Shown: positions 8,532 to 55,301, counted from the stretch's first letter. The stretch is 64,000 bases of DNA from an uncultured Dehalococcoidia bacterium (GCA_958296385.1 OY282494.1:31416-95415); one strand, 5' to 3'. Notes: generated from the letters alone by a model not told the origin. Numbers and translations: made by a program.

Positions 8532-9986
8532 CTACTCCCAGCTCAAAAAGTTCTGCACCAGTTGACGGGCCGGGTTGCGGTCGTAAATCTGATAGAGCAG
8601 GGCGGCGTTGCGTGCGGCGTCGCCGCCAAAGTAGCGTTCGTAGAGCGTTTGCCGCCCGCCGAACGCGCTGCACGACACGTCCCACGCCAGCCGGAACAGC
8701 CGGATGCGTTCCTCGGCGGTGGCCGTGTCGGTGTCCAGATACCGCGCGATTTCGTCGGCCAGCGGCCCGTGCAGGTCGGCCTCGGCGGGCAGCGCCATCA
8801 GGCTGCTGGAACCCAGCAGGTGCAGCAGCTCCGCCATCCGCGGGTACATCGTAATCATCTGCTTGCGCGCCACCAGCAGCGGCCGGTAGTCGGGGCAGCA
8901 AATGCCCCATTCGTCAACCGACGCCTGCGCCTCCGACGCCAGCAGCAGCGCCCGGGTTATCTCCAGATTCTCGATTACCTCTGCGATGAGCTGCTGCGTT
9001 TGGGGCAGTTCGCCGGAGCCGAGAATGTCCGCCATCAGCGACGCCAGGCCCAGGATGAACTCGCACTTGACCACGTTTTTGGTAACCACCTGGTGGCCGG
9101 TGTGGGCGTTGCGGTTGGTGCGCTCGCCCCACGCATTGCACCGCGCCACGTCATTATAAAGAAACACCCGCTCCCACGGCACCAGCACGTCGTCAAAAAA
9201 CACGATGGCGTCCATCTCCTCAAAGCGGCTGCTGGCCGGATGGTCAAAGTGCGACCGCCCGGCGTCAAAGGTATCGCGACACTGAAACTTGAGGCCGTCG
9301 CTGTTGCACGGAATGGAGAAACCGAAAGCGTAGCGCCCCTCCTCGCCGGCCGGCACCCGCCGCGTGCGGGCCGGATAGACGGCGATTTCATCCGACAGCG
9401 GCCCCAGCGTGGCCAGCACCCGCGCCCCGCGCACGATGATGCCGTCGCTGTTCTCGTCCACCACCGACAGCGCGACGTCGGTGCGGTCGTCAAAAGGCGT
9501 TTCGCCAACCGAACGGCTGCGCTGCAAGTTGACCAGCGTGTGCGTCAGCACGATGTCGTTTTCCCGGATGTACTCGTAGTAATTAAGGATGTTCTGCCCG
9601 AATTCGGGCCGGTTCTGCGCGCAGTAGTCGGCGCCGGCGGCCATTGACATCACCGCTACGTTGAGAAAGTCGGGCGTGCGCCCCATCATCCCGCAGGAAC
9701 CCTTGGCCCAGTTAGCCATCATCCGCCGCCGTCGTTCCAAATCCTCCCGGCTGCGGGGCATGATGAACGACAGCCCCACCGGGTCGCCCGTCGTCGGCGA
9801 TGGATAGGTCATCTGCTCAGCCAACGCCGGGTCGTGCTGCATATCCAGCAGGCTGGCCACCGTGCGCAGCCCGCCGCCAAAAGCCGGATGCGCCGTAACG
9901 TCGCCCACCCGCTCCCCGGCAATGTAAATGTCCGCCCCCCGCTCCCGCAGGCCGGCGATGTACTCAACTCCACTGCGTGCCGGCAT
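8532..9986 (-). CDS. 4-hydroxyphenylacetate 3-monooxygenase oxygenase-component family (HpaB-like) flavin monooxygenase
   Basis: MPARSGVEYIAGLRERGADIYIAGERV...MMGRTPDFLN...VLTHTLVNLQRSRS. ATG 9986 is preceded by GGAGGA. Confidence 0.85.
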   Translation of the reverse strand: MPARSGVEYIAGLRERGADIYIAGERVGDVTAHPAFGGGLRTVASLLDMQHDPALAEQMTYPSPTTGDPVGLSFIMPRSREDLERRRRMMANWAKGSCGMMGRTPDFLNVAVMSMAAGADYCAQNRPEFGQNILNYYEYIRENDIVLTHTLVNLQRSRSVGETPFDDRTDVALSVVDENSDGIIVRGARVLATLGPLSDEIAVYPARTRRVPAGEEGRYAFGFSIPCNSDGLKFQCRDTFDAGRSHFDHPASSRFEEMDAIVFFDDVLVPWERVFLYNDVARCNAWGERTNRNAHTGHQVVTKNVVKCEFILGLASLMADILGSGELPQTQQLIAEVIENLEITRALLLASEAQASVDEWGICCPDYRPLLVARKQMITMYPRMAELLHLLGSSSLMALPAEADLHGPLADEIARYLDTDTATAEERIRLFRLAWDVSCSAFGGRQTLYERYFGGDAARNAALLYQIYDRNPARQLVQNFLSWE

Positions 9987-10156
9987 CAGGCTTCCTCCAC
10001 AAACGGCGCGACGAACTACTGCTGCCGCCAGAGTATGGCATATCAGCCCAAACCGCAATCGCCATCCCCCCGATGGCCGCGTTCCGTTGCCGGCGGTTCA
10101 ACCGGCCCCCGCCAAAATCCCCCGCAAAATCCAAAAAATCAATGACGCTACCCCCC

Positions 10157-10185
10157 TTGCCGAACGAATGTACGACTGGCATAAT
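10157..10185 (+). promoter_or_regulatory. Sigma70-like promoter of structured element copy 1 (TTGCCG-17-CATAAT)
   Basis: Hexamers and 17-nt spacing match the promoters at 31409 and 46332, although the spacer sequence differs. Confidence 0.5.
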
Positions 10186-10191
10186 ACCCCT

Positions 10192-10632
10192 ATCGGGCAA
10201 ATCAATCAACCCCCTATCCCCAGCCGTTTTCAGATAGAGAGCGCACCTGAGGAAGCGGGGACACCGCATCAAACCACACCGCTAGCACCACCGCCGGAGA
10301 TTCAAGTCAAAAACGGCCAGTCAGCAAAAACCGCAATCGGCAAGGGTAGTCCCGACCCCGCTTTCACGGCGCGGGCTGCCTCCGCAGGGTATCGAGCTTC
10401 AGCCCGCGTGCTGTCCTCTCATTAGGGATAGGCCACGTAAAATGAAGGTACAAAATAGTTGCGTACCCACCTCCGGCCGTAGGGCTGACAACGACTTGAA
10501 TCTCCGACAACCACCAATCAAACCAACCAAACCCACCGCCCGATAAACGCCCGATACCAGCCAACCGCAACCCACTCCCAAAGGATGACCCATCATGACT
10601 TGACCAAACCACTTGAAACGAAACGCTGTCCC
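10192..10632 (+). ncRNA. Candidate large structured non-coding RNA, copy 1 of 3
   Basis: Collinear with 31444..31902 and 46367..46794 and has no conserved ORF. Long-range helix CGGAGATTCAAGTC (10295-10308) / GACTTGAATCTCCG (10493-10506). Confidence 0.55.
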
Positions 10633-10658: not shown

Positions 10659-11483
10659 ATGCCCATCATCCCGCGCGGCGATGCCCGGCTCCATTACTAT
10701 CTGGACGATTTTACCGACCCCTGGCGCGCCTCTCCCGATGCCGTCGTGTTGCAGCACGGCTTTTCGCGGAGCGGACGGTTCTGGTACAACTGGCCGCCCC
10801 TGCTGGCCCGCGAGTACCGCGCCATCCGCCCCGATTTGCGCGGCATGGGCCTGTCCACCGTTGACCCGGAGCGCTACGCGCCTACCCTTGACGTTCTGAT
10901 GGCCGACTTGCTGGCCATTCTGGATGACGCCGGCGTCGAGCGGGCCGTGTACGTAGGCGAGTCTTTCGGCGGCATTATGGGAATGCAGTTTGCCCACGAT
11001 TACCCGGAACGCTGCCGCGCCCTGGTGCTGTGCAACTCGCCCTGCCGCCTCACCCGCCGGGAGAACGACACCCCCGGCGGCAGCTGGCTGGCCACCATGG
11101 CCTAGGGCGGCATCGGCGCATGGAGCCAGGCCACCATCAACTACCGCCTGGACTTACGCCACGCCCCCGCCGGCCTGCAAGACTGGTACGTCTCCGAGAT
11201 GGACAAAACCCCCGCCAGCATCGGCCAGGCCCTGCACGCCTACCTGGACAGCCTCGACTTCGGCCCCCATCTCAAAGACATCACCGTCCCCACCCTGCTG
11301 CTCACCGGCGACGAATCGCCAACTACCGCCCCGGAACAGCAGCAGTTCATGGCCGCGCAAATCCCCAACAGCCAGCTAACCGTCTGGCCCGGCCTCGGCC
11401 ACGGCGTCAACGTAATCTACCCGGAATGGTGCGTAGATAAGATGCGCGAGTTCCTGGGCAGGCCGGCGGCCCCGACGCTATGA
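10659..11483 (+). pseudogene. Alpha/beta hydrolase interrupted by an in-frame TAG (11103..11105)
   Basis: ORFs 10659..11105 and 11199..11483 are in the same frame, and the frame is open between them. The nucleophile GESFGG is in the first part and the His (GLGHGV) in the second. Confidence 0.75.
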
Positions 11484-12664: not shown

Positions 12665-12812
12665 AACCTAATCCTCCATCCAACATCCTGCAAATCGCCG
12701 GCATCCCGGCAACCCGGACACCGCCCAACAGATATACCCGGCAACCCCCGCCCCCGTCAACCGGAACGCCCTGGCCGTCCTTGTGAGCCCCCGCCGCCAT
12801 CCCTCTCCCCCC

Positions 12813-12919
12813 AATGTCATTCTGAGCGTAGCGAAGAATCTCGACAGCGTAGCAACGGCGTTGCCCCCAAAGCGGGCCCCTACGACATCGAGATTCTTCG
12901 CTACGCTCAGAATGACATT
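12813..12919. repeat. Palindromic element copy 2 (32-bp perfect arms, ~43-nt loop)
   Basis: AATGTCATTCTGAGCGTAGCGAAGAATCTCGA (12813-12844) is the reverse complement of 12888-12919. The loop shares GCGTAGCAACGG.GTT with copy 1. Confidence 0.9.
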
Positions 12920-13038
12920 AGGAATGGCAGTGACCGCCCCGCCCTTGCCGCCGTTTTCGCCGGTCTTTATACTGGCGGCATCCAATCCCGGATTAATTCC
13001 CGGCGCCAGCGCCGGCCGCTGCCGTGAGGAGGCCCGTT

Positions 13039-31331: not shown

Positions 31332-31354
31332 CTGGGGGAAATCATTTCCCCCAG
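31332..31354. promoter_or_regulatory. Perfect palindrome CTGGGGGAAAT-C-ATTTCCCCCAG at the 5' edge of element copy 2
   Basis: The same arms occur at 46234..46256. Located 70 nt after the ubiE stop. Confidence 0.4.
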
Positions 31355-31408: not shown

Positions 31409-31437
31409 TTGCAGCCGCACACCAGTTCGTGTAAGAT
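31409..31437 (+). promoter_or_regulatory. Sigma70-like promoter of element copy 2 (TTGCAG-17-TAAGAT)
   Basis: Geometry is conserved with the other two copies. Confidence 0.5.
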
Positions 31438-31443
31438 ATATTC

Positions 31444-31902
31444 ATCGGGCATCTCAACCAACCAATCCCCGCCTCAGCCGTTCTCGACGGAGAGCGTCCC
31501 CTGAGGCACCGGGGCCATCACACTATCACAACACCGCGTCAAACGTCGCCGGAGATTCCAGTCACCACGGCCACCCCCGTCAGCATCCAAATCGCAATCG
31601 GCCAGGCCGCCTATCCCTGCTTCCACAGCGCGGGCGGTACTCCGCAGGGTATCGAGCTTCAGCCCGCGTGCTGCCTCTCATTAGGGCAGGACACGTAAAA
31701 TGAAGGTCCGTAATAGTTGCGTAAAAACCTTCCGGCCGTAAGGGCTGACACCGACTCGAATCTCCGGCGATAACCGAACCACCAAACCAACATCAAACCG
31801 AACCCACCGCCCGATACCGCTAGCCCGATTACCACACCCGCCCGATAGGAGCCAGGCACAAATGATGAACTAACCAAACTACCCGCAACAAAACGCTGCC
31901 GC
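31444..31902 (+). ncRNA. Candidate large structured non-coding RNA, copy 2 of 3 (most diverged)
   Basis: Helix CGCCGGAGATTCCAGTC (31547-31563) / GACTCGAATCTCCGGCG (31753-31769). Paired indels relative to copies 1 and 3 occur in two hairpins. Confidence 0.55.
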
Positions 31903-34725: not shown

Positions 34726-35275
34726 GTTTGACGCCACCCAACTGGTACTGCGCCACGCCGGGGACAGCCCGGTCGTGGGCAACCTGGGGCCCACCAGCGA
34801 CGAGCTGTATCACGCCGGCCACCGGGACCGCAATTTCTACACCTACGGCAGCATGGGCCTGTGCTCGTCAATCGCGCTGGGGATGGCCCTGTCCACCGAC
34901 GACAAAGTAATATCGCTGGACGGCGACGGCTCGCTGCTGATGAACCTGGGCGCCATCGCCACCATCGGGCGGGAGAATCCGCCCAACCTGGTGGTAGTAG
35001 TTTGGGACAACGAAGCCTGGGGGCAAACCGGCGGCCAACCCAGCCACACCGCCACCAACACCGACCTGGCAGCAGTAGCCCAATCCTGCGGCATCACCAA
35101 AACCGCCACCGTAAGCGACCTGGAAACGCTGGAAGAGGCAGTCTCACAAGCAATGACGGAGCCGGGGCCATGGTTCATAGTAGCCAAAATTGAGGAAGCG
35201 GAAGAATATATGCCGGTAGCCCCGGTAGAACCGGAGTTCACCCTGTATCGGTTCAGAAACACCTACGTGGAGTGA
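34718..35275 (+). CDS. ThDP-dependent decarboxylase beta subunit (ComE-like), second pair
   Basis: TTG start overlaps the alpha subunit stop, with GGAGG 6 nt upstream. ThDP motif LDGDGSLLMNLG...WDNEAWGQTGGQ. Confidence 0.7.
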   Translation: MLRFDATQLVLRHAGDSPVVGNLGPTSDELYHAGHRDRNFYTYGSMGLCSSIALGMALSTDDKVISLDGDGSLLMNLGAIATIGRENPPNLVVVVWDNEAWGQTGGQPSHTATNTDLAAVAQSCGITKTATVSDLETLEEAVSQAMTEPGPWFIVAKIEEAEEYMPVAPVEPEFTLYRFRNTYVE

Positions 35276-37329
35276 CGCGGCCGGCCGAAAGCACCGCACC
35301 CATGCTCTCCCGCCGCCCGCTGGCCCGGTTCCGGCCCGGCCGCTTTACCCTGCTGCTGGCCGGCATTGCCGTGCTGGGCGCGGCCCTCGTGCTGGCGCGG
35401 GAGGTTACTTACGGGGTGGCGCTATCGTGGGATTCCGTAGAGTACATCGGCGTGGCCGGGAGCCTGCTGGCAGGGGACGGTTTTACGCGGTTCTTTGGGG
35501 GCGTTTATAAGGCGTTTCCCCCGCTGTATCCCGTGCTGCTGGCGGCGGGCAGCCTTTTCCTGTTTGACCCGCGCGACGTCGCCGGGCCGCTGAACGCCGT
35601 CATCTTTGGGCTGATTATTTTCGTTGCCGGACGTTACCTGCGGCTCCGCCTGCAATCCCGGTTCCTGGTCGGTTGGGCCTGCCTGGTCATAGCTCTAGCC
35701 ATCCCACTGACTGAGATTGCATCCCATGCGATGTCCGAAACGACGTTCATCCTGCTGGCAATCCTCGCTCTAATCCAGACCGATGCGTTCCTGATCGACG
35801 GCAAACGTTCCGCTTTGCTGTGGGCGGCGGCGTTCACCGCTCTGGCCTGTCTGACGCGCTTTATGGGCGTTACGGTGCTGGCTGCCATAGTGCTGCTGCT
35901 GCTTTGCCAGCGCGGCATAGCCCTGCCGGACAAGGCAAAACGCATCGCCGTCTATGCGCTGATTGCGGCAACGCCGGTCGGCCTGTGGATACTGCGGACT
36001 TTCCTGCTCACCGGAACGCCGACCGGAACGAGAGGCCGGACGTTTTACTCCCTGCCGGAGATTCTGGACGGAATGTTAGACGTCGTCGTCAAGCAGGGTT
36101 CCCTGGATTTGCAGTTGGGGGACGCTGCGTTTATCCCCGTAGTCGGGTTAGCCGGCCTCAGCCTGCTGGCGCTGGCGGCGGCGGTTTGCTACACATTCGT
36201 CCGCGCGCTCCCGCCGGGCGATACCTGGACCAATCGGCGTCCCTTTTACATATTTGGCGGGTTTGGACTGGTGTACCTCATCTTACTTACGGTAGCGATG
36301 CTGTTGGGAAACACTTGGGACGGGGTGCAGCCCAGATTCCTGACCCCGGTGTACATTCCGCTCCTGTTTGCGGCGCTATTTGTGATTGACCAGTCCTGGA
36401 GTTATGTACGGGAGCGCAGGCAGTCGGCAACTGATGGCAGATTGTCAGCAACAGAACGAATGCACGAGAGGGGGCAGCAATGGCCGAGTCTGCTGGCTGC
36501 CAGCATAGTCATCCCGCTTTCCCTGATACTGGTTCATCAGTCGGTGTTGCAGGCCGGCGCAATAACTGAGGCGAATGAGGGCGCCAACCTGGGGTATGAC
36601 GGCAAAAGATGGACGGATTCAGAAACCCTGCAATACGTCCGAGAGTCAGCCCTGACCGGAATGATATTCAGCAACGACGCGGCGGCCACCTATATTCATA
36701 CCGACCTCCCCGCAAAGCATCGCTATTGGTCCTGTACAAATGGCAAACTGCAATCGCAACTACCGGCGGAAGGCGTTGAGGATGGCATTGCCGTCCACGG
36801 TGTTTGGTTCTACAACAGGTGTGGCGAGAGCGACTCGCTCACCCCCGCCGACTTGCGGACAACGCCAGGGCTGGAGCCGGTGGCAAAGCTGAGCGACGGC
36901 GCTATCTTCAAAGTTAACCGGAATTACGACCCCGCCAGTGCGCTGCGTGCGGAGTACGCAGCCATAGCATCCGGCGAACCCCTAATCCGTTCCGATTTCG
37001 TCGTTTATCTCAATGGACGCACCATGCACTACATCAGGGACACGTGCCGGGAGCAGGACACGACGGCAATGTTCTTTCTCCACGTCACCCCATCGGACGC
37101 GAATGACTTGCCGGCCCACCGCAAGCAGTACGGCTTTGACCACCACGACTTTAGCTTTAATCAATACGGCCTGATGTTCGACGGCAAGTGCTGGGCAGAG
37201 CGCATACTGCCGCAGTACGACATCGCCGCCATCCGCACCGGCCAGTACGTTCTCGAGGCCGGCGATTTCAACAACCTCTGGGAGGCGGAATTCCCCTTTA
37301 TGCCCGGGCAAGAAGGAACGCCGCAATAG
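35272..37329 (+). CDS. GT-C-type polytopic membrane glycosyltransferase-like protein (ArnT/PMT-like) with conserved C-terminal module, paralog 1
   Basis: There are >=10 hydrophobic segments. The first-loop motif is WDSVEY...GDGF and the C-terminal ~110 aa are shared with paralogs 2-4. GTG 35272 overlaps the upstream TGA; ATG 35302 is an alternative start. Confidence 0.7.
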   Translation: MTRPAESTAPMLSRRPLARFRPGRFTLLLAGIAVLGAALVLAREVTYGVALSWDSVEYIGVAGSLLAGDGFTRFFGGVYKAFPPLYPVLLAAGSLFLFDPRDVAGPLNAVIFGLIIFVAGRYLRLRLQSRFLVGWACLVIALAIPLTEIASHAMSETTFILLAILALIQTDAFLIDGKRSALLWAAAFTALACLTRFMGVTVLAAIVLLLLCQRGIALPDKAKRIAVYALIAATPVGLWILRTFLLTGTPTGTRGRTFYSLPEILDGMLDVVVKQGSLDLQLGDAAFIPVVGLAGLSLLALAAAVCYTFVRALPPGDTWTNRRPFYIFGGFGLVYLILLTVAMLLGNTWDGVQPRFLTPVYIPLLFAALFVIDQSWSYVRERRQSATDGRLSATERMHERGQQWPSLLAASIVIPLSLILVHQSVLQAGAITEANEGANLGYDGKRWTDSETLQYVRESALTGMIFSNDAAATYIHTDLPAKHRYWSCTNGKLQSQLPAEGVEDGIAVHGVWFYNRCGESDSLTPADLRTTPGLEPVAKLSDGAIFKVNRNYDPASALRAEYAAIASGEPLIRSDFVVYLNGRTMHYIRDTCREQDTTAMFFLHVTPSDANDLPAHRKQYGFDHHDFSFNQYGLMFDGKCWAERILPQYDIAAIRTGQYVLEAGDFNNLWEAEFPFMPGQEGTPQ

Positions 37330-37373: not shown

Positions 37374-39464
37374 GTGCGAACTTTACTTCCAGCCCACCGC
37401 ATCTATTTCATCATTGCCCTCCTGCCCTGGCTGGCGCTGCTGGGCTGGTTGGCATCGGTGTCGTGGTTTCTCACCGACGACGCCTTTATCAGCTTTCGCT
37501 ACGTCCGCAACCTGCTGGAAGGGCACGGCCTCGTTTTCAACGTCGGCGAGCGGGTTGAGGGCTACTCCAACTTCCTGTGGGTGCTGGAACTGGCCGCCGT
37601 TTGGGGCATCTTGGGCATCAAGCCCGAACACGCCGCCCCCTGGCTGTCGGTAATCTACACGGCGGCAACCATCGCCGCGCTGCTGTGGTGGGCGTGGCGC
37701 ACGCCGTCGCTGCGGTGCCGGGGATTGACGGCGTGGCTGGCCCTGGGGCTGGTGTGCAGCAGCGCCACCTTTGCCGTCTGGACATCCGGCGGAGGGCTGG
37801 AAACCCGGCAGTTCACTTTCTTTATAGTCGTAGCGGTAGTCTGCCTGGCCCTGTACCGCAACAACCAGTGGGCCCTGCTGACGGCATCGCTGAGCCTGGC
37901 CGCCGCGTCCCTGACCCGCCCGGAGGGCCCGCTGATTGCGGTTCTGTGCTTCGGCTGGTTCATCATTCAGCGGATGATTGACGCCGGCCGGCCCCGTCTT
38001 GACTGGCGGGAACTGGCTTTCCTGATAGTACCCTTTGCCGTCCTGATTGCCGGCCATTTCCTGTTCCGCTACGCCTACTACGGCGAATGGCTGCCCAACA
38101 CCTACTACGCCAAACACGTCCGCCCCTGGTACGAATCGGGATTCCGCTACCTCTGTGCGGCGGCCATTGAAACGGGGCTGTATCTGCTGCTGCCGCTGGC
38201 CGCCATCGCCCTGCGGGAACGCTGGCGGCAATACCGGGATGGCACCTACGCCCTGGTGCTGCTGATAATCGTGGTGCACATGGCCTACGTAATGCGGATT
38301 GGCGGCGACCATTTTGAGTACCGGCCGCTGGATTTCTACTGGCCACTGCTGGCGCTGCCGGCGGCAGTGGGGATTGTGCATCTGGGCGGCTGGGTTGCCG
38401 GCCAAGCGCAACGTATCCGGCCAATCGCACGGGTCAGGATATTATCAAGCCCGCCGGCGTGGGCGCTGCTGCTGTTCGTGCCCATCATTTTCTACTCGAG
38501 CGCAATGCAGGCGGCCCTGCTGTTTGAGGGGGCCAAGATTAACGAACGCATCTTTCAAATCCATATCGAGCTCGATGATGAGACCGCCAGCTGGCTGCGG
38601 TCCGCGCCGGGGATGCCCGCGCTGGCGGCAATCTCCAACGACTTGCGCGCTAGTCTTGTCCAGCAGAACGTGAATCTGCGGTTCGTCGAGCATCGCGAAT
38701 TCGCTGACAAAAGGATTGCGATATGGCAGCCCTACTCGAATATGGAACGGGGGCTAATTCCCGACGACGCGGTGATGACTACCGCCACCATCGGCATCCC
38801 ATACTATTATCTCCCGGAACTGACCGTCATTGACTATAATGGTCTGACCGACGCGACGATAGCGCGCAATCCGGTTACACACCCCAACCGAGAGCGCCAA
38901 ATGGCCCACGACCGTTCTCCGCCCCCCGGCTACCTGAAGCAGCGCGGCGTTAATATTGACCTTCATGGCCCGGCGGCCACTGTGGAGCAGGCGTTGCAAG
39001 CTGAATATGCCATGCCGGTGGGGCCCAACCTCTGGATGCCCTTTGAGTCCGACGACCCTGAGTGGGTCAGCTCCGCTTTTGCCGGACGCGACCTAATAGT
39101 GTCCAGCGATTACAATGCGGAGTTGACCAGGGGCAACACGCCGGCAATTCGTTCCCAATTCGACGTCCACCTTGTGGAGAACCGGCTGATCTACGTAAAG
39201 GAACAGTGCGGCCCGAACGACCTTGACGCCGCGTTTTTCCTCCACTTGCACCCGGTTGACGTGAACGACCTGCCCGACGACCGCAAGCAGCACGGTTTTG
39301 ACAACCGAGACTTCTACGAGGATAGTATCATCAGACTGGCTAACACCTGCCGGGCCATAGTTCTGCTACCGGAATACGACGTCGCCGAAATCAGAACCGG
39401 CCAGTTTATAGAAGTGGATGGCGGCTATAAGCACATCTGGGAGGGGGAAATCCGGCCGGAATGA
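37374..39464 (+). CDS. GT-C-type membrane glycosyltransferase-like protein, paralog 2
   Basis: First loop TDDAFISFRYVRNLLEGHGLVFNVGERVEGYSNFLW. The C-terminal module lies at 39153-39461. Confidence 0.7.
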   Translation: MRTLLPAHRIYFIIALLPWLALLGWLASVSWFLTDDAFISFRYVRNLLEGHGLVFNVGERVEGYSNFLWVLELAAVWGILGIKPEHAAPWLSVIYTAATIAALLWWAWRTPSLRCRGLTAWLALGLVCSSATFAVWTSGGGLETRQFTFFIVVAVVCLALYRNNQWALLTASLSLAAASLTRPEGPLIAVLCFGWFIIQRMIDAGRPRLDWRELAFLIVPFAVLIAGHFLFRYAYYGEWLPNTYYAKHVRPWYESGFRYLCAAAIETGLYLLLPLAAIALRERWRQYRDGTYALVLLIIVVHMAYVMRIGGDHFEYRPLDFYWPLLALPAAVGIVHLGGWVAGQAQRIRPIARVRILSSPPAWALLLFVPIIFYSSAMQAALLFEGAKINERIFQIHIELDDETASWLRSAPGMPALAAISNDLRASLVQQNVNLRFVEHREFADKRIAIWQPYSNMERGLIPDDAVMTTATIGIPYYYLPELTVIDYNGLTDATIARNPVTHPNRERQMAHDRSPPPGYLKQRGVNIDLHGPAATVEQALQAEYAMPVGPNLWMPFESDDPEWVSSAFAGRDLIVSSDYNAELTRGNTPAIRSQFDVHLVENRLIYVKEQCGPNDLDAAFFLHLHPVDVNDLPDDRKQHGFDNRDFYEDSIIRLANTCRAIVLLPEYDVAEIRTGQFIEVDGGYKHIWEGEIRPE

Positions 39465-39591
39465 GCCGGTAATCTCCCCCCTGCCAAAGCGGTTGCATCT
39501 GTTACGGATTATAGCGCATAGTACCAAACCGCCGCCCCGCCACAAGCGCATTTCCGCATCGCCCCGGCGCGGTTATCCAGGAATCAGGCAG

Positions 39592-41898
39592 ATGATAAAC
39601 AAACGGTGGATAAACATAATGCGGGGCCTGTTATCGACTGCCCCGCTGCGCCACGCTCTGTTCACCCTGTTCATCGCCGGCATCCTGTCCTACGGCGCCG
39701 GGTTCGCCGGTTATATGCTGGCCAAATTTGACCTCATCAACCTCATCCGCGAAATGAGCAATGATGATTCCTTCTACTATTTTCAGATAGCCTATCACCT
39801 GTCCGAGGGAAAGTTTTCCACCTTTGACGGCGGCATCACCCGCACCAACGGCTACCATCCCCTCTGGATGTTTGCCGTCACGCCGTTTTATTGGGTGTTT
39901 GACAAGGAATCCGCCCTGTTCGGCATCAAGGCTTTTGAGATTATGCTCGTTGCCGGGGCCGTTGCCTGTATTGCGACAGCGGCCCGGCTGGCGCGGCTGC
40001 CCTGGATTTTGCTTTTTGCGGCGCTGCCGCTGCTTTACGAGCATCGTGCCTCGTTTGGCGGGCTGGAAGCCGCCGCCGCGCTGTTTATGCTGGGGCTGTT
40101 TATGCTGGCCCTGATGCTCTATGCGCGCAATCCGGCCCGGTGGACTTGGCCGCTGGCCGCCGTTGCCTTTGCGCTGCCCTGGGTGCGGCTGGAGTACATC
40201 GCCATATCGATGGCGGCGACAGTGGTGTTGTGCGTCATTGAATGGTCGCGGCGGGAGCGGCCGGCCGGGGCGTGGTGGCGCAGCTTGATGCTTTCTGCCC
40301 CCTCCCAAGCGTTAGTTCTAATCGGCGGCGCAATCGCCGGCATCCTGGTCTATTTCCTCTACAATCGGTTGGTGTTTGGCGGCATCGTGCCGGTAAGCGG
40401 CGTTACCAAAGCCGCCTGGTCGCAGTTCAAGTGGGCGCAGGCCGGCGGGTACAGTTTTACGCAGAACTTCCGGGATGTGTTGCAGGTTCCGGTCTTTGAC
40501 TTTGAGCTGCTGGCTGCGTTGGCGATTTGCGCCGGCCTGCTGTTGGTCTGGTGGCTGGCCCGACGTTCTCGTGATGAACGGGATTGGCTGCTGCTGGTTT
40601 TTCTGGTAGGCGCGTTCGGCTTGGCCGTCGGCCATCTGTCAATGTTCGCGCAAACCGTGCTCACCGTGTATCCCACCAGCCAAGGGAAATTTCTCTGGTA
40701 TTTTGTACCGGCGTATCTGATGATGGCGCTGATTACTCCCGTAATCTGCTATGTTGCCATTTACTTCATTCGGCGTTGCATCGGGCCAAGATGGCGCCGC
40801 ACGGCCGGCCTGCTGAGCGTGAGCATCATCGCAGCCGGCGCGGTTTTCCTGCTGGCCAGGGCGGATTTCACTTATCCATTCTGGTTTGTTGAGAATTACA
40901 GTGCGATAACCAGGAATCACGATGAATGGGTTTCCTCTTTTTATGGCGGCGTGCAGGTTATGAACCGGGTGCTTCCCGATAACAGCGTGGTCGGCTCGTG
41001 GGACGCCGGCATCGTCGGGTACTTCTCCCGTTTTCCGGTGGTCAACCTGGACGGTTTGGTCAATTCCTACGACTATCTGCACGACACCGGAGTAGCGGAG
41101 GATGGCTATGCCAGCTGGAAAAATAAGTTCATTCCCCTTTACCGAGAGTTTGGAATAACCGGCTTTGCCAATATTACGACGCAGCACTTTGCGGGCGACG
41201 TAATTTTGGAAACTTCGTCGCCGTCCCAGGGGGATCGTTTCTACATCTTTCCCGCCGAACCGCTGGACAACGCTGACACTGCGGAATGGTTCTGGCAGCG
41301 GATGGAGCCGCACTTCGCCTACCAGTCCGATGGCGTCGGCTTTATTGTGGATGGCCGGCTGGCGCAGGGGTTTGCCAGAAACTGCGCGCCGGGCGAGCTG
41401 GCGGTATGGGAATGGGGCGGGCCGGGCAACGTAGTCGGCATGAATTGGCACCGGAACGAATCGGGGCTGTGCATGGTCGATATGCTGCTGCCGCACCACG
41501 CCATGCCGCCGGTAGGGATTGCTGCGCTGTCGGCCAGCGATTACCTGGCGGCGCTGATTGGCAGCAGCGCGCCGGCAATCTCCTCCGACTACGCGGTCTA
41601 TCTCAAGAACAACCGGCTCATCTACGTAAATGAACAGTGCGGCGATGCCGACGTTGCCCGTGGTTTCTTTCTGCATTTGGACCCGGTTCGCCAGCTCGAC
41701 TTGCCGCGCCAACGCCGGCCCAACGGGTTTGACAACCTGGACTTCCGTTTTGCCTGGAACGGCCGCCAATTCGGAGAAATCTGCATCATAATCCGGCAGC
41801 TCCCGGATTATGACATCGCCGCAATCCGCACCGGCCAATTTGAGCGGGTGGGCGGCAACTTCAGTCACGTCTGGGAGGGTAAAATCCGGCCGGAATAA
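39592..41898 (+). CDS. GT-C-type membrane glycosyltransferase-like protein, paralog 3
   Basis: First loop NDDSFYYFQIAYHLSEGKFSTFDGGITRTNGYHPLW. The C-terminal module lies at 41584-41895. ATG 39592 was chosen over the track start, which overlaps paralog 2. Confidence 0.7.
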   Translation: MINKRWINIMRGLLSTAPLRHALFTLFIAGILSYGAGFAGYMLAKFDLINLIREMSNDDSFYYFQIAYHLSEGKFSTFDGGITRTNGYHPLWMFAVTPFYWVFDKESALFGIKAFEIMLVAGAVACIATAARLARLPWILLFAALPLLYEHRASFGGLEAAAALFMLGLFMLALMLYARNPARWTWPLAAVAFALPWVRLEYIAISMAATVVLCVIEWSRRERPAGAWWRSLMLSAPSQALVLIGGAIAGILVYFLYNRLVFGGIVPVSGVTKAAWSQFKWAQAGGYSFTQNFRDVLQVPVFDFELLAALAICAGLLLVWWLARRSRDERDWLLLVFLVGAFGLAVGHLSMFAQTVLTVYPTSQGKFLWYFVPAYLMMALITPVICYVAIYFIRRCIGPRWRRTAGLLSVSIIAAGAVFLLARADFTYPFWFVENYSAITRNHDEWVSSFYGGVQVMNRVLPDNSVVGSWDAGIVGYFSRFPVVNLDGLVNSYDYLHDTGVAEDGYASWKNKFIPLYREFGITGFANITTQHFAGDVILETSSPSQGDRFYIFPAEPLDNADTAEWFWQRMEPHFAYQSDGVGFIVDGRLAQGFARNCAPGELAVWEWGGPGNVVGMNWHRNESGLCMVDMLLPHHAMPPVGIAALSASDYLAALIGSSAPAISSDYAVYLKNNRLIYVNEQCGDADVARGFFLHLDPVRQLDLPRQRRPNGFDNLDFRFAWNGRQFGEICIIIRQLPDYDIAAIRTGQFERVGGNFSHVWEGKIRPE

Positions 41899-46183: not shown

Positions 46184-46233
46184 CCGGCCATGACGTAGCA
46201 GCCCCTTTGCCCTCAAGGATCCGCCGAGGGGGT

Positions 46234-46256
46234 CTGGGGGAAATGATTTCCCCCAG
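46234..46256. promoter_or_regulatory. Perfect palindrome CTGGGGGAAAT-G-ATTTCCCCCAG at the 5' edge of element copy 3
   Basis: 11-bp arms are identical to those at 31332..31354. It is nested in an outer GGGGG/CCCCC pair (46228-46232 / 46263-46267). Confidence 0.4.
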
Positions 46257-46331
46257 CGGAAGCCCCCTTACGAATACGCCCCCCCGTCAAAATCCCCCGC
46301 CAAATCCAAAAAATCAATGACACCCCTCTAC

Positions 46332-46360
46332 TTGCAACCGTACATCGGTTCGTGTATGAT
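46332..46360 (+). promoter_or_regulatory. Sigma70-like promoter of element copy 3 (TTGCAA-17-TATGAT)
   Basis: Best match to consensus among the three copies. A conserved A-rich block (CCAAATCCAAAAAATCA) lies upstream. Confidence 0.55.
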
Positions 46361-46366
46361 ACATCC

Positions 46367-46794
46367 ATCGGGCAAATCAATCAACCCCGCTACCAGCCGT
46401 TTCTCATATAGAGGGCGCACCTGGGAAATCGGGGACACCGCATCACCATCGTCGGAGATTCAAGTCAAAACGGCCAGTCAGCAAAAATCGCAATCGGCAA
46501 GGGTAGTCCCGACCCCGCTTTCACGGCGCGGGCTGCCTCCGCTGGGTATCGAGCTTCAGCCCGCGTGCAGCCCTTAAAAAGGTAGGACACGTAAAATGAA
46601 GGTCCAAAATAGTTGCGTACCAACCTCCGGCCGTAGGGCTGACAACGACTTGAATCTCCGGCAATCACCAAACCAACCAAACCAAAATCGCCCGATACGA
46701 CGCCCGCCCGATACCAGCCAAGCACAAAATCCACTCCCAAAGGATGACCGATGCTGATATGAAATGACCAAATCACCTAAAACGGAACGCCGCC
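46367..46794 (+). ncRNA. Candidate large structured non-coding RNA, copy 3 of 3
   Basis: 16-bp long-range helix 46451-46466 / 46647-46662 and inner helix GTCAGC/GCTGAC. It has conserved hairpins, a C/A-rich G-poor 3' tail and no conserved ORF. Confidence 0.6.
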
Positions 46795-46846
46795 AGCCGC
46801 CGGCGGCGCATCAAGGATGCTATGATGTTCCGTGGGGTGATTTAAC

Positions 46847-51962: not shown

Positions 51963-52012
51963 AATATCAGCAACAGTATAACAAAGTGCCGCCGTCTGGC
52001 GTCGGCGCGCGC
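51963..52012. repeat. ~50-bp imperfect direct repeat flanking the disrupted GT-C paralog (left copy)
   Basis: AATATCAGCAACAGTATAACAAAGTGCCGCCGTCTGGCGTCGGCGCGCGC compared with 54408..54458: about 8 mismatches and 1 gap by eye. Confidence 0.7.
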
Positions 52013-52057
52013 AGCACGTATCCACCGGACTCGGTGCAAAAGACGGGAGCAGATGGC

Positions 52058-54401
52058 CTACTTTACAACGATGATTTCCCCTTCCCAGACGTGCTTGAAA
52101 TCGCCGTCCACCCACTCATACTGGCCGGTGCGGATTGCGGCGATGTCGTAATCCGGTAGCTCCCGGATGGTTATGCAGGTTCCCCCCAATTGGTGGCCGT
52201 ACTCGGTAAAACCGAAGTCCAGGTTATCAAACCCGGCGGACCGGCGATGACCCGGCAGGTCGCCCTGGCGAACCGGGTCCAAATGCAAAAAGAAGTGATG
52301 GGCAACGTCGGCGTCGCTGCACTGTTCCTTTACATAAATGAGCCGGTCGCTGTTGACATAAACATCGTAATCGGAGCGGATTGCCGGCGGGCTGTTGCCG
52401 ATTAGCTCCGCCAGGTAATCGCCGACCGACATCGTAGCAACCCGCACCGGCGGCGTTGCGCCGTGCGGCAGCAATGCGGAGGCCACGCACAATCCGTTGT
52501 CGTTTTCGTTCAAGGGAATGAACCTGGAATCGTTTGCTCCGTCCGGGGTTGACCAGAAAACTACCGTTACATCATCTGCATCGCAGTCCTTAGCGAATAT
52601 CTGCGTCATCCGGCCGTCAAGAGTTAGTCCTATGCCATTGCGTTGATAGTCAAAGTGCGGTTCAATTCTTTTCCAGAACCAGGCAGCGCTGTCAAAACCC
52701 CTTAAATCATGTGATGCCCAGAGTTGGTATCCTACCTTAGATCCATTACCATGGTACACAGCTCCCTCAAGCAGCGTCATATGCAATTTTCTAGTGATTG
52801 CATAATTGATGAAATGGTTTATACCGAATTTCTTAAAAAACGGTTCAGTGTCGCCAAACTGTTGCTCTAAAACCCAGAAGCGCTTGCCACCGGCGGCGAC
52901 ATAGGCGTTTAGATAGTCGTAATCGTTCACCAGTCCGTCCAGATTCACTACCGGGAAGCGCGAAAAATACCCGACAACGCCGGCATCCCACGCCCCCACT
53001 ATGCTTTCATCGGGAAGCACCCGATTCACAGTCTGGATGGTAAGGTAGTTAGTGGGCGCCCAGCCAACCCGCGTGTCCTTGGAACTGGCATCAACTCTTT
53101 GGAAAGGATAGGCGAAATCACCATTGAACCAGAGGAGAACTACTGCGATTACAACGGCGGCCACGCTTAAAGTGTTCGCTGTGCGAGTTGACCAGGGCGC
53201 AACGAAGCGGCGAATGAAGTGCACGACAATACAGCATCCGATGGGGAGAGCCAGCGCCATCAGCAAGTAGGCCGGAACAAAGTACCATAGCCATAATGGT
53301 TCATCAGGATGCACGGTGAGCACGGTTTGCGCGAACTTGGCGATATGGCCGGCGGCCAGTCCGAACACCCCCACCAGAAAAACCAGCAGCAGCCAATCCC
53401 GTTCATCCCGAGAGCGGCGAGCGAACCACCAGACCAGCAGAAGGATGACGCAGCCCCCTAACGCTACTAGCAACTCAAGGTCAAAGACCGGAATCTGTAA
53501 TGTGTCCTGTAAGTTCTGCACGAAATTGTACCCGCCGTCCCGCTCCCAATAGAACCGCTGCCATGCCTGCTTGGTCGCGCCGCTCACTGGCACGATGCCG
53601 CCAAACACCAGCTTGTTATAGGCGAAGTAAATAAGTATCCCAGCAGTTGCGCTCGCTATTAAAACTAACGCCCGGAGCGGGGCGGTAGAAAGTATTGCCG
53701 CTCTCAAAGACACCCCGGCCGGCCGCTCCCGCCACGACCATTCAATGACGCACAACGCCACCGTCGCCGCCAGCGATATGGCGATGTACTCCAGCCGCAC
53801 CCAAGGCAGCGCAAAGGCAACGGCGGCCAGCGGCCAAGTCCACCGGGCCGGATTGCGCGCATATAGCATCAGGGCCAGCATAAACAGCCCCAGCATAAAC
53901 AGCGCGGCGGCGGCCTCCAGCCCGCTAGGCGCCTTGCCCGTAAAGCAGCGGCAACGCCGCAAAAAGCAAAACCCACGGCAGCCGCGCCAGCCGGGCCGCT
54001 GTCGCAATACAGGCAACGGCTCCGGCAACGAGCATAATCTCAAAAGCCTTGATGCCGAACAGCGCCGTTTCCTTGTCAAACACCCAATAAAACGGCGTGA
54101 TTGCAAACATCCAGATGGGATGGTAGCCGTTGGTGCGGGTGATACCGCCGTCAAAGGTGGAAAACTTCCCCTCCGCCAAGTGGTAGGCTATCTGAAAATA
54201 GTAGAAGGAATCATCGTTGCTAGCGTCGCGGATGATATTGATGAGGTCAAAGTTGGCCAGCATATAGCCGGCAAACCCGGCGCCGTAGGCCAGGATGCCG
54301 GCGATGAACAGGACGAACAGGGCGTGGCGCAGTTTATCGGAATGCAGGTTCAGCATAGGGCTAACGCGGTCTTTATAGAGGATGGGAATACCGGGCGGCA
54401 T
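52058..54401 (-). pseudogene. GT-C-type membrane glycosyltransferase-like paralog 4, frame broken near 53925-53945
   Basis: ORF 53925..54401 encodes the N-terminal 158 aa and closely matches paralog 3 by eye. ORF 52058..54154 carries the remainder in another frame. Relative to paralog 3, the junction has a net 5-nt length difference. Confidence 0.7.
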
Positions 54402-54407
54402 ACCCCT

Positions 54408-54458
54408 AATATCGGCAAACAGTATAACAAGGCGCAGTCGTTTGGCGGCGGAGCGCGC
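54408..54458. repeat. ~50-bp imperfect direct repeat flanking the disrupted GT-C paralog (right copy)
   Basis: AATATCGGCAAACAGTATAACAAGGCGCAGTCGTTTGGCGGCGGAGCGCGCG. Confidence 0.7.
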
Positions 54459-54570
54459 GACGGGTATGCTAGGCTGGTATCCCCATGAATCATTGCGCTA
54501 TACTGCGCCCGTTCCCAACCCAAAGCATCCGGCCCCGCTACTCCGGCCCCACTACAACGGAGGTCAGGCA

Positions 54571-55128
54571 ATGACCACAGCCAAAAAACTGCTCACCGCC
54601 GCTGACCTGCTGGCAATGCCCGACGACGGCAAGCGGTACGAACTCGTACAGGGGGAACTCATCGAAATGCCGCCGCCAAGCATCATGCACGGCATAGTAA
54701 CCGGGCGCCTTGGGTATCGCATCACGCACTTTATTGAGGAACGCAATCTGCCCTTTATTTACGGGCCTGAAGCCGGGATTTACATTGAGCAGGCCCCGGA
54801 CACCATTCGCGCCGCCGACTACGCCCTAATCGCCCGCACGCGCATCACCGAACCCCTGCCGGAACGGGGCTACGCCGCCGGGGTTATTCCCGATTTGGTA
54901 GTGGAGGTAGTTTCGCCCGATTACCCGATGACGGCAGTGGATTCCAAAATCCAAACGTGGCTGGCCGCCGGCGTGCGAATAGTCCTGGCAATCTACATAA
55001 CCAGCCGGGAAGTAGTGGCGCACCACCACGATGGAACGGTGCAACGATTCGGCCCCGGCGATACGCTAACCTGCGAGCCGGTATTGCCCGGCTTCGCTTG
55101 CCGGGTGGACGATATTTTCGCATATTGA
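54571..55128 (+). CDS. Uma2/DUF820 family endonuclease
   Basis: ...YELVQGELIEMPPPSIMHG...PDLVVEVVSPDY...DSKIQTWLAAGVRIV. RBS GGAGG lies before ATG 54571. Confidence 0.85.
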   Translation: MTTAKKLLTAADLLAMPDDGKRYELVQGELIEMPPPSIMHGIVTGRLGYRITHFIEERNLPFIYGPEAGIYIEQAPDTIRAADYALIARTRITEPLPERGYAAGVIPDLVVEVVSPDYPMTAVDSKIQTWLAAGVRIVLAIYITSREVVAHHHDGTVQRFGPGDTLTCEPVLPGFACRVDDIFAY

Positions 55129-55301
55129 CGTGGTTGGGATAGTACGCTGGACTTGACCGTAGCCGCCACCGGTAGCATAGGGGTGACGACCCGCCTTGCT
55201 TGGGCGCCGATTGCGCTGCCTCACACAATTGCCGCCATAATTGGATTGTGGTAATCTAGCCTTGTTAGGCATTGCCTGAATACCATTAAGGAGTACATAT
55301 A

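Follow-up and report, generated by a model that had tools for sequence, protein, structure and literature searches.

A three-copy, promoter-bearing intergenic element in a Dehalococcoidia genome is a candidate family of structured non-coding RNA genes

The 64,000-nucleotide stretch of DNA analysed here (the window; GCA_958296385.1 OY282494.1:31416-95415, from an uncultured Dehalococcoidia bacterium) carries an intergenic element in three copies on the + strand, at 10157-10630, 31409-31900 and 46332-46794 (copies 1, 2 and 3), which align end to end. A preliminary description had proposed this three-copy element, and the observation is confirmed both by the alignment and by an nhmmer profile, which found exactly three copies in the window with E values of 1e-150 to 1e-190. 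On the opposite strand of the window the profile found no copy of the element, its only reverse-strand matches being an internal 23-bp palindrome. The paralogs are 81–94% identical in a core of ~215 nt (46449-46664 in copy 3). On either side of it, in the 5′ domain (46367-46448) and tail (46665-46794), identity falls to 50–72%, and the flanks beyond are unrelated. We propose, as an even call, that the copies represent a family of independently transcribed genes for a structured, trans-acting non-coding RNA (ncRNA), carried on a promoter-bearing module that has recently multiplied in this lineage.

Searches for homologs added two sequences. The first, L065:9516-9948, comes from a ~97% identical strain, where it occupies the site of copy 3 and is the ortholog of that copy; the 723-nt spacer around it contains no called gene. 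The second (L066) is a copy of a fourth type on an 853-nt metagenome contig, found through the translation of its minus strand (protein P0122); since no part of the window matches its flanks, the family must occupy at least four loci. The window itself is 99.7–100% identical to the ENA metagenome contigs L023 and L077 and ~97% identical to a 2.1-Mb contig of the strain represented by L024 and L065. Homologs of its TypA come from sources named as Chloroflexota, and a sample name, JAHN19, may point to a marine sponge metagenome. Known from essentially one species and one further contig, the family is a lineage-restricted, unclassified ncRNA candidate.

All three copies have the sigma70-type promoter with 17-nt spacing that had been assigned to them. 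The promoter scan reported those of copy 3 (Table 1) and copy 1 (TTGCCG-17-CATAAT), and that of copy 2 (TTGCAG-17-TAAGAT) was read in the sequence, scoring 8/12 and thus falling under the scan threshold. The −35 and −10 hexamers keep their positions while the spacer sequence differs among the copies, and in all five sequences the −10 ends 6 nt ahead of a conserved AUCGGGCA, whose A is the seventh base past the −10; this fixed distance between promoter and RNA start is consensus evidence only. An A-rich block resembling an UP element precedes every promoter, as previously described: copies 2 and 3 and L065 have it in identical form, copy 1 differs by one substitution, and L066 differs by one substitution and lacks one A. 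Farther upstream, the 23-bp palindrome CTGGGGGAAAT(N)ATTTCCCCCAG of copies 2 and 3 is also found at L065 and L066, varies only at its central base and has no counterpart at copy 1. It is a separate upstream module and could serve as an operator for a dimeric regulator or form a hairpin.

The region upstream of the RNA start has other features of its own. Over 107 nt that include the promoter spacer (46260-46366 compared with L065:9400-9515), the two strains are only ~77% identical, whereas the genes flanking copy 3 and L065 are 97–98% identical between them; judged from these alignments, the region diverges much faster than synonymous sites, and exchange between paralogs may be the cause. Elsewhere in the window, a 24-nt tandem repeat (CATCCCCGCTGTCATACTAAGCGC, 11 copies, 6291-6554) runs into a ~115-nt palindromic element, CCCCAATGTCATTCTGAGCGCAGCGAAGAATCTCGA...TCGAGATTCTTCGCTGCGCTCAGAATGACATTGGGG (6534-6646, with a second copy at 12809-12922), which has no Rfam match. 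The left half of an element of this type lies ahead of copy 2, copy 3 and L065 (31280-31330, 46190-46230 and L065:9285-9365), and a similar palindrome, GTCATTGCGAGCG..., occurs in related genera (L067, spacer 9804-10000).

The + strand had been put forward as the sense strand of the RNA, and the direction of the promoters, the folding energies and the wobble pairs all agree with this. Compared with dinucleotide shuffles, the minimum free energy of the + strand gave z scores of −1.9 to −3.45 in all five sequences and that of the minus strand −0.85 to +1.25, so that only the + strand beats its shuffles. Our pairing model contains 39 G.U cells against 7 A.C cells, a ratio that the complement would reverse, although the count leans towards the + strand because the model was built on it. 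Between the two strains, the RNA part differs by 9 substitutions in 428 positions (2.1%) and the third codon positions of typA by 37 in 615 (6.0%; Fisher p 0.002), a comparison that supports purifying selection on the RNA part. A minus-strand RNA was considered and rejected: the terminator-like hairpin that might end it (46809-46787) is not part of the shared element, and copy 1, copy 2 and L066 lack it. This GC-rich hairpin and the T-run after it (46787-46809, between the element and typA) have the form of a terminator on the minus strand only; they are retained in L065 and have no obvious minus-strand gene to terminate.

The pairing model was built by hand on the + strand from an alignment (A6) of the five closely related sequences, and 95.5% of its cells are paired. 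The 16-bp long-range helix, the GUCAGC/GCUGAC pairing and the ACGGCC/GGCCGU complementarity singled out previously are all present and invariant in the five sequences, the helix in 14 of its 16 pairs. Also invariant is a proposed CGCAAU/GUUGCG pairing, which avoids a U.U mismatch that the RNAalifold alternative has in copy 3 and L065. The ACGGCC segment and the GGCCGU loop would probably form a loop-to-internal-loop pseudoknot. Variation is seen in the 5′ hairpin domain, where pairs change among the copies from U.G to C-G, U-A to U.G, C-G to U-A and U-A to C-G, and in the hairpin at 46501-46538, where a G-C pair is A-U in L065 and a C-G pair is U-A in copy 2. The L065 change accounts for two of the only six core differences from copy 3. 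A further change in copy 2, from A-U to C-G, appears only after a register shift realigned by hand; in the tool alignment it consists of mismatches.

Part of the earlier fold needs revision. The GCGGGCUG/CAGCCCGC stem does exist, but it competes with a better-supported GGGUAGUCCCG.../...CGGGCUGCCU hairpin, in which the L065 change is compensatory, as are the copy 2 changes, given the hand-realigned register; in the GCGGGCUG/CAGCCCGC stem, the same changes become a wobble and a G.A mismatch. That stem is probably not the dominant fold: both helices may form, with the data favouring the GGGUAGUCCCG/CGGGCUGCCU hairpin. As to the compensatory variation that had been noted, the paired U/A insertions in two hairpins are real in the alignment and two helices show double changes, but these instances are anecdotal: among the five close sequences, 4 pairs change on both sides, compared with a mean of 2.9 in shuffled data, in which 157 of 500 shuffles reach the observed number.

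The last ~130 nt are G-poor and C/A-rich, as had been stated, with 36–41% C and 12–15% G over the copies and a peak C/G ratio of 3.3. The terminator scan found no + strand intrinsic terminator after any of the three copies. From this composition and the lack of an intrinsic terminator we infer that termination may be Rho-dependent, the tail resembling a Rho utilisation site; Rho loading sites are usually C-rich and G-poor. Within the otherwise variable tail, two or three CGCCCGAUA motifs are kept in each copy, and 7 of the 11 + strand GCCCGAT sites of the 64-kb window fall in the three tails. These motifs, as we report here for the first time, are complementary to the 5′ end of the RNA and to an invariant loop of the core. 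GCCCGAU complements the first seven bases, AUCGGGC (predicted duplex, −13.5 kcal/mol), a pairing used in the minimum-free-energy fold of copy 3 and in the three-copy consensus fold, and GCCCGAUACC pairs at 9 of 10 positions with the loop GGUAUCGAGC (GGGUAUCGAGC), with a predicted energy of −14.5 kcal/mol. Through such pairings the molecule could, according to these predictions, close on itself or pair with another copy.

Taken together, we picture each copy as its own + strand gene for a structured ncRNA of ~340–430 nt, which would be transcribed from the sigma70-type promoter with its upstream A-tract and would start at AUCGGGCA. A variable 5′ hairpin domain would be followed by the conserved core, closed by the 16-bp helix and GUCAGC/GCUGAC and opening into a multi-branch junction, probably with the ACGGCC/GGCCGU pseudoknot. 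The tail would be single-stranded and, to judge by its composition, would load Rho; one of its CGCCCGAUA motifs would pair with the 5′ end (7 bp) and another with the core loop GGGUAUCGAGC (9 of 10 bp). The product would presumably be a stable RNA that acts in trans, by binding protein or associating with itself, and not a leader, and the module would have spread by duplication, at the DNA level and together with its promoter, into intergenic spacers. A bolder proposal, that the element defines an undescribed class of mid-sized RNA with a ~215-nt pseudoknotted core, a 22-bp interrupted helix, tail-driven circularisation or multimers, and propagation as a module without inverted repeats or target duplications, we regard as doubtful.

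Several observations weigh against independently transcribed RNA genes. A co-oriented gene follows three of the four loci with no obvious terminator between, so read-through effects are possible. The RNAalifold energies of the core alone are approximately equal on the two strands. The five closely related sequences give no statistically significant covariation, and most helices never vary. Finally, the family is confined to one species and one short metagenome contig, and its conservation could partly reflect recent spread.

Known families do not account for the element. A cmscan of the whole window against Rfam 15 (4,227 families, which include RNase P, tmRNA, SRP, 6S, riboswitches, HEARO, IS605-orfB, ROOL, GOLLD, OLE, raiA and Chloroflexi-1) gave no match at the gathering score, and searches of each copy and of L066 at E up to 10 returned only weak, short and inconsistent matches of 10–23 bits. 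The earlier statement that the copies match neither RNase P, tmRNA, SRP, 6S nor any riboswitch thus stands. A tRNA or tmRNA identity is likewise rejected, and the window contains no tRNAs. Exact-pattern scans returned 22 loci in GTDB (one genome per species; several in a Rhodobacteraceae coding region) and 37 in JGI metagenomes, all of them chance matches. Three patterns had no match in viral contigs, and blastn found none in plasmids and phages. Literature searches for the sequence motifs of the element returned nothing, and no Chloroflexota genomes were found in the two genome-wide ncRNA surveys checked for them.

The element behaves as a recently spread module, a point absent from the preliminary description: it is missing from both of the orthologous spacers that were compared in related genera. 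In genomes with a TypA 82–83% identical to that of the window, the brkB–typA spacer that houses copy 3 here measures 41 nt and lacks the element, and the hydrolase–hpaB spacer of the same relatives measures 197 nt and lacks it as well. Presence or absence between lineages was tested at these two sites, for which recent spread in this lineage is seen directly; in the ~97% strain, the element is present at the copy 3 site. The orthologs of copies 1 and 2 in that strain were not recovered, as a two-protein profile returned only HpaB of other genera, whose loci served for the empty-site comparison. The neighbours of the three copies are brkB, typA, ubiE, rnc, hpaB and the hydrolase gene. At the copy 1 site, the relatives have TATGGTATATCAGCGAAAACCGCAA, a ribosome-binding site and the hydrolase ATG, whereas the window has TATGGCATATCAGCCCAAACCGCAA, ~560 nt of element, GTGAGG and ATG. 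Copy 1 thus lies between the hydrolase gene and the region that formerly held its promoter. The repeated unit includes its own promoter, so it was DNA that was copied during the spread, and not a reverse-transcribed RNA.

The alpha/beta hydrolase gene (10659-11459) has an in-frame TAG at 11103-11105, where relatives have a CAG (Gln) as codon 149; outside this codon, the alignment extends over 267 residues at 80% identity. The gene is probably a pseudogene, unless the TAG is a sequencing error.

Such a history also fits the main rival explanation, in which the element is a selfish DNA repeat, either a non-autonomous mobile element or a 'mobile promoter', that is conserved because it is young, and any transcript of it is a by-product or only drives downstream genes. 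Besides the two empty spacers, this account draws on the lack of any profile match to the element in ~260 kb of DNA from relatives, compared with three copies in 64 kb here; on its very narrow distribution; on its association with other repeat modules and its ragged 5′ boundary, copies 2 and 3, L065 and L066 having an extra upstream module that ends in the palindrome and copy 1 lacking it; and on copy 1 having split from its promoter a gene that now has a nonsense codon. Yet no transposase accompanies the element, and the flanks of the five copies contain neither the terminal inverted repeats nor the target duplications that would mark a MITE or other non-autonomous DNA transposon. It is also the centre and not the ends that is most conserved, the RNA part changes less between strains than synonymous sites, the folding signal and the excess of G.U are strand-asymmetric, and paired insertions keep hairpins intact. 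On balance, we find a purely selfish repeat possible but not probable; it is, moreover, compatible with RNA function, as in a mobile RNA gene.

The genes downstream bear on a second alternative, a cis-acting leader in which a structured sensor and a Rho loading site would form a conditional, riboswitch-like attenuator. Co-oriented genes without an intervening intrinsic terminator follow copy 1, copy 3 and L066, copy 1 has a promoter-like sequence ahead of it and the hydrolase ribosome-binding site behind it, and the tail has a rut-like composition. However, what follows copy 2 is a convergent gene, that of RNase III, whose 3′ end it faces; copy 2 therefore cannot be a leader. The downstream genes are functionally unrelated (a hydrolase, TypA and a gene of unknown function), past the element typA still has a −10-like sequence of its own, positioned as in relatives, and no riboswitch model matches. 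As a general role, a leader is thus distinctly unlikely.

The long-range helix closing a ~200-nt core with a candidate pseudoknot, and the several dispersed copies, recall RNAs that assist a protein encoded elsewhere, such as the omega RNA of IscB or TnpB, a bridge RNA or a retron-type RNA, and IscB systems are known from Chloroflexota. We consider this kind of accessory RNA very improbable. Even at E up to 10 there is no match to HEARO, IS605-orfB or another Rfam family, and the adjacent open reading frames (ORFs), part of the subset of window ORFs scanned against Pfam, include no IscB, TnpB, recombinase or reverse transcriptase. Among the copies, the segments on either side of the core are homologous (50–72% identity), which leaves no unrelated segment that could act as a guide. 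No iscB or tnpB gene and no IS200/IS605 ends lie beside the copies, although stand-alone copies acting in trans could exist outside the 64-kb window. A retron msr-msd RNA specifically was rejected, the downstream genes being typA, the convergent rnc and the hydrolase gene and not a reverse transcriptase.

That the element is a protein-coding gene or a decayed pseudogene has next to no chance of being right. The minus strand does contain ORFs of ~100 codons, one of which a gene caller had predicted on a metagenome contig (P0122). But the ATG common to the copies opens frames of 53, 34 and 13 codons, in line with the earlier judgement that the element is non-coding and has no conserved ORF, and indels of 1, 2 and 5 nt in the most conserved part disrupt every frame across the core. 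The minus-strand ORFs mostly lie in non-equivalent frames, as had been described, except for a short stretch common to the ORFs of copies 2 and 3. ORFs on either strand of the element have no Pfam match. With a minus-strand ORF as query, a search of 5.8 billion protein clusters returned one protein, P0122, itself called from another copy of the element, and an exhaustive search of 1.8 billion representatives with a second ORF gave two weak, low-complexity matches to long, unrelated proteins. Gene callers have left the spacer empty in L065 and L077.

Table 1. Positions of the element copies and of the predicted features of copy 3 in the window
Feature	Position	Strand	Details
Copy 1	promoter 10157-10185; RNA 10192-10630	+	Preceded by an old promoter-like sequence and followed by the ribosome-binding site for the alpha/beta hydrolase
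Copy 2	promoter 31409-31437; RNA 31444-31900	+	Between ubiE and the convergent RNase III gene
Copy 3, predicted RNA	46367-46794	+	Begins at the conserved AUCGGGCA, 7 nt past the −10; homology ends at AACGCCGCC
Copy 3, promoter	46332-46360	+	TTGCAA-17-TATGAT
A-rich block CCAAATCCAAAAAATCA	46300-46316	+	About −67 to −51 from the predicted start
Perfect 23-bp palindrome	46234-46256 (copy 3); 31332-31354 (copy 2)	.	~75–100 nt upstream of the −35
5′ hairpin domain	46385-46434	+	CCCC/GGGG and CCAG/CUGG, with an inner hairpin
Long-range helix, 16 bp	46451-46466 with 46647-46662	+	
ACGGCC	46470-46475	+	Complementary to the GGCCGU loop at 46629-46634; invariant; duplex −10 kcal/mol
GUCAGC	46477-46482	+	Pairs with GCUGAC at 46638-46643; invariant
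CGCAAU	46489-46494	+	Proposed pairing with GUUGCG at 46612-46617, closing the inner junction; invariant
Hairpin GGGUAGUCCCGACCCCGC-loop-GGCGCGGGCUGCCU	46501-46538	+	Best-supported inner helix
Near-invariant segment CCUCCGC(N)GGGUAUCGAGCUUCAGCCCGCGUGC	46536-46568	+	Its GGUAUCG complements CGAUACC in the tail
Variable hairpin	46568-46585	+	CUGCCU...AGGGCAG in copy 2 and L066; paired U/A insertion in copy 1; CCUU-AAA-AAGG in copy 3
Hairpin CCU[CCGGCCGU]AGG	46624-46637	+	Paired U/A insertion and longer stem in copy 2
C/A-rich, G-poor tail	46663-46794	+	C 36%, G 15%; CGCCCGAUA motifs at 46690-46696 and 46706-46712

Other parts of the window contain repeated or strain-variable sequence. Three large tandem ORFs without a Pfam match (35272-37329, 37374-39464 and 39418-41898) share a conserved C-terminal segment of ~100 nt, and the minus strand carries a related ORF (52058-54154); this region is only ~85% identical between strains that are otherwise 96–98% identical. 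Between gatB and the gene for acetyl-CoA synthetase, an island that varies between strains (52000-55200, compared with L024:1958-6183) holds an MmeI-type restriction-modification gene in the ~97% strain and a different large ORF in the window, with several Uma2-family genes flanking it. An esterase ORF at 2801-4765, which encodes 654 residues with two Abhydrolase_3 domains and has the same length in related genera, contains an internal DNA repeat with a period of ~1 kb (2972-3228 and 3971-4227, 76% identical).

If transcribed and functional, the element would add an unclassified, fairly large structured RNA from Chloroflexota, a phylum in which, to our knowledge, almost no regulatory RNAs have been characterised. 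It would also be a clear example of a promoter-carrying RNA gene recently multiplied into conserved intergenic spacers, and its self-complementary tail motifs make a concrete, testable structural hypothesis. Its value is limited for now, as comparison within one species and one contig cannot establish structure or function.

Several known systems share features with the element. Chloroflexi-1 (RF01698) is an orphan, multi-copy structured RNA motif of Chloroflexus aggregans that was found by comparative genomics (PMC2864571). Like the element, it is intergenic, non-coding, limited to one Chloroflexota lineage and without an assigned function. The element differs from it in having no cmscan match to RF01698 and a recognisable promoter in every copy. 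It is also much larger than the Chloroflexi-1 motif.

Putative mobile promoters are homologous, promoter-carrying intergenic modules that occur ahead of genes with no relation to one another and are missing at the corresponding positions in relatives. The element shares with these and with miniature elements the promoter modules upstream of unrelated genes and the empty sites in relatives; it differs in lacking inverted repeats and target duplications and in having a long, conserved RNA part that appears to be under selection and a centre that is its most conserved region.

Among regulatory RNAs, CrcZ and CrcY are ~400 nt long and titrate Hfq/Crc through A/C-rich motifs, and RsmX, RsmY and RsmZ form a set of paralogs that each have a palindromic activating site upstream. 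The element is like them in its length, in being a set of paralogs each with its own promoter, in the short motifs repeated in an unstructured C/A-rich region, and in the upstream palindrome, here present at four of the five copies. However, it has no sequence or model similarity to these RNAs, its motif is CGCCCGAUA and not GGA or AANAANAA, and they have no counterpart of its large conserved core with a candidate pseudoknot.

The ornate RNAs ROOL, GOLLD and OLE form homo-oligomers (PMC12286853). With these and with raiA and HEARO, the element has in common a multi-helix architecture with long-range helices and a size above that of typical small RNAs, and by analogy its self-complementary motifs could mediate self-association. 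It nevertheless lacks an Rfam match, is smaller than ROOL or GOLLD, and shows no association with phages or tRNAs, the viral searches having given no hits and the window containing no tRNAs. A member of none of these groups, the element resembles multi-paralog regulatory RNAs in its design and the smaller ornate RNAs in its complexity.

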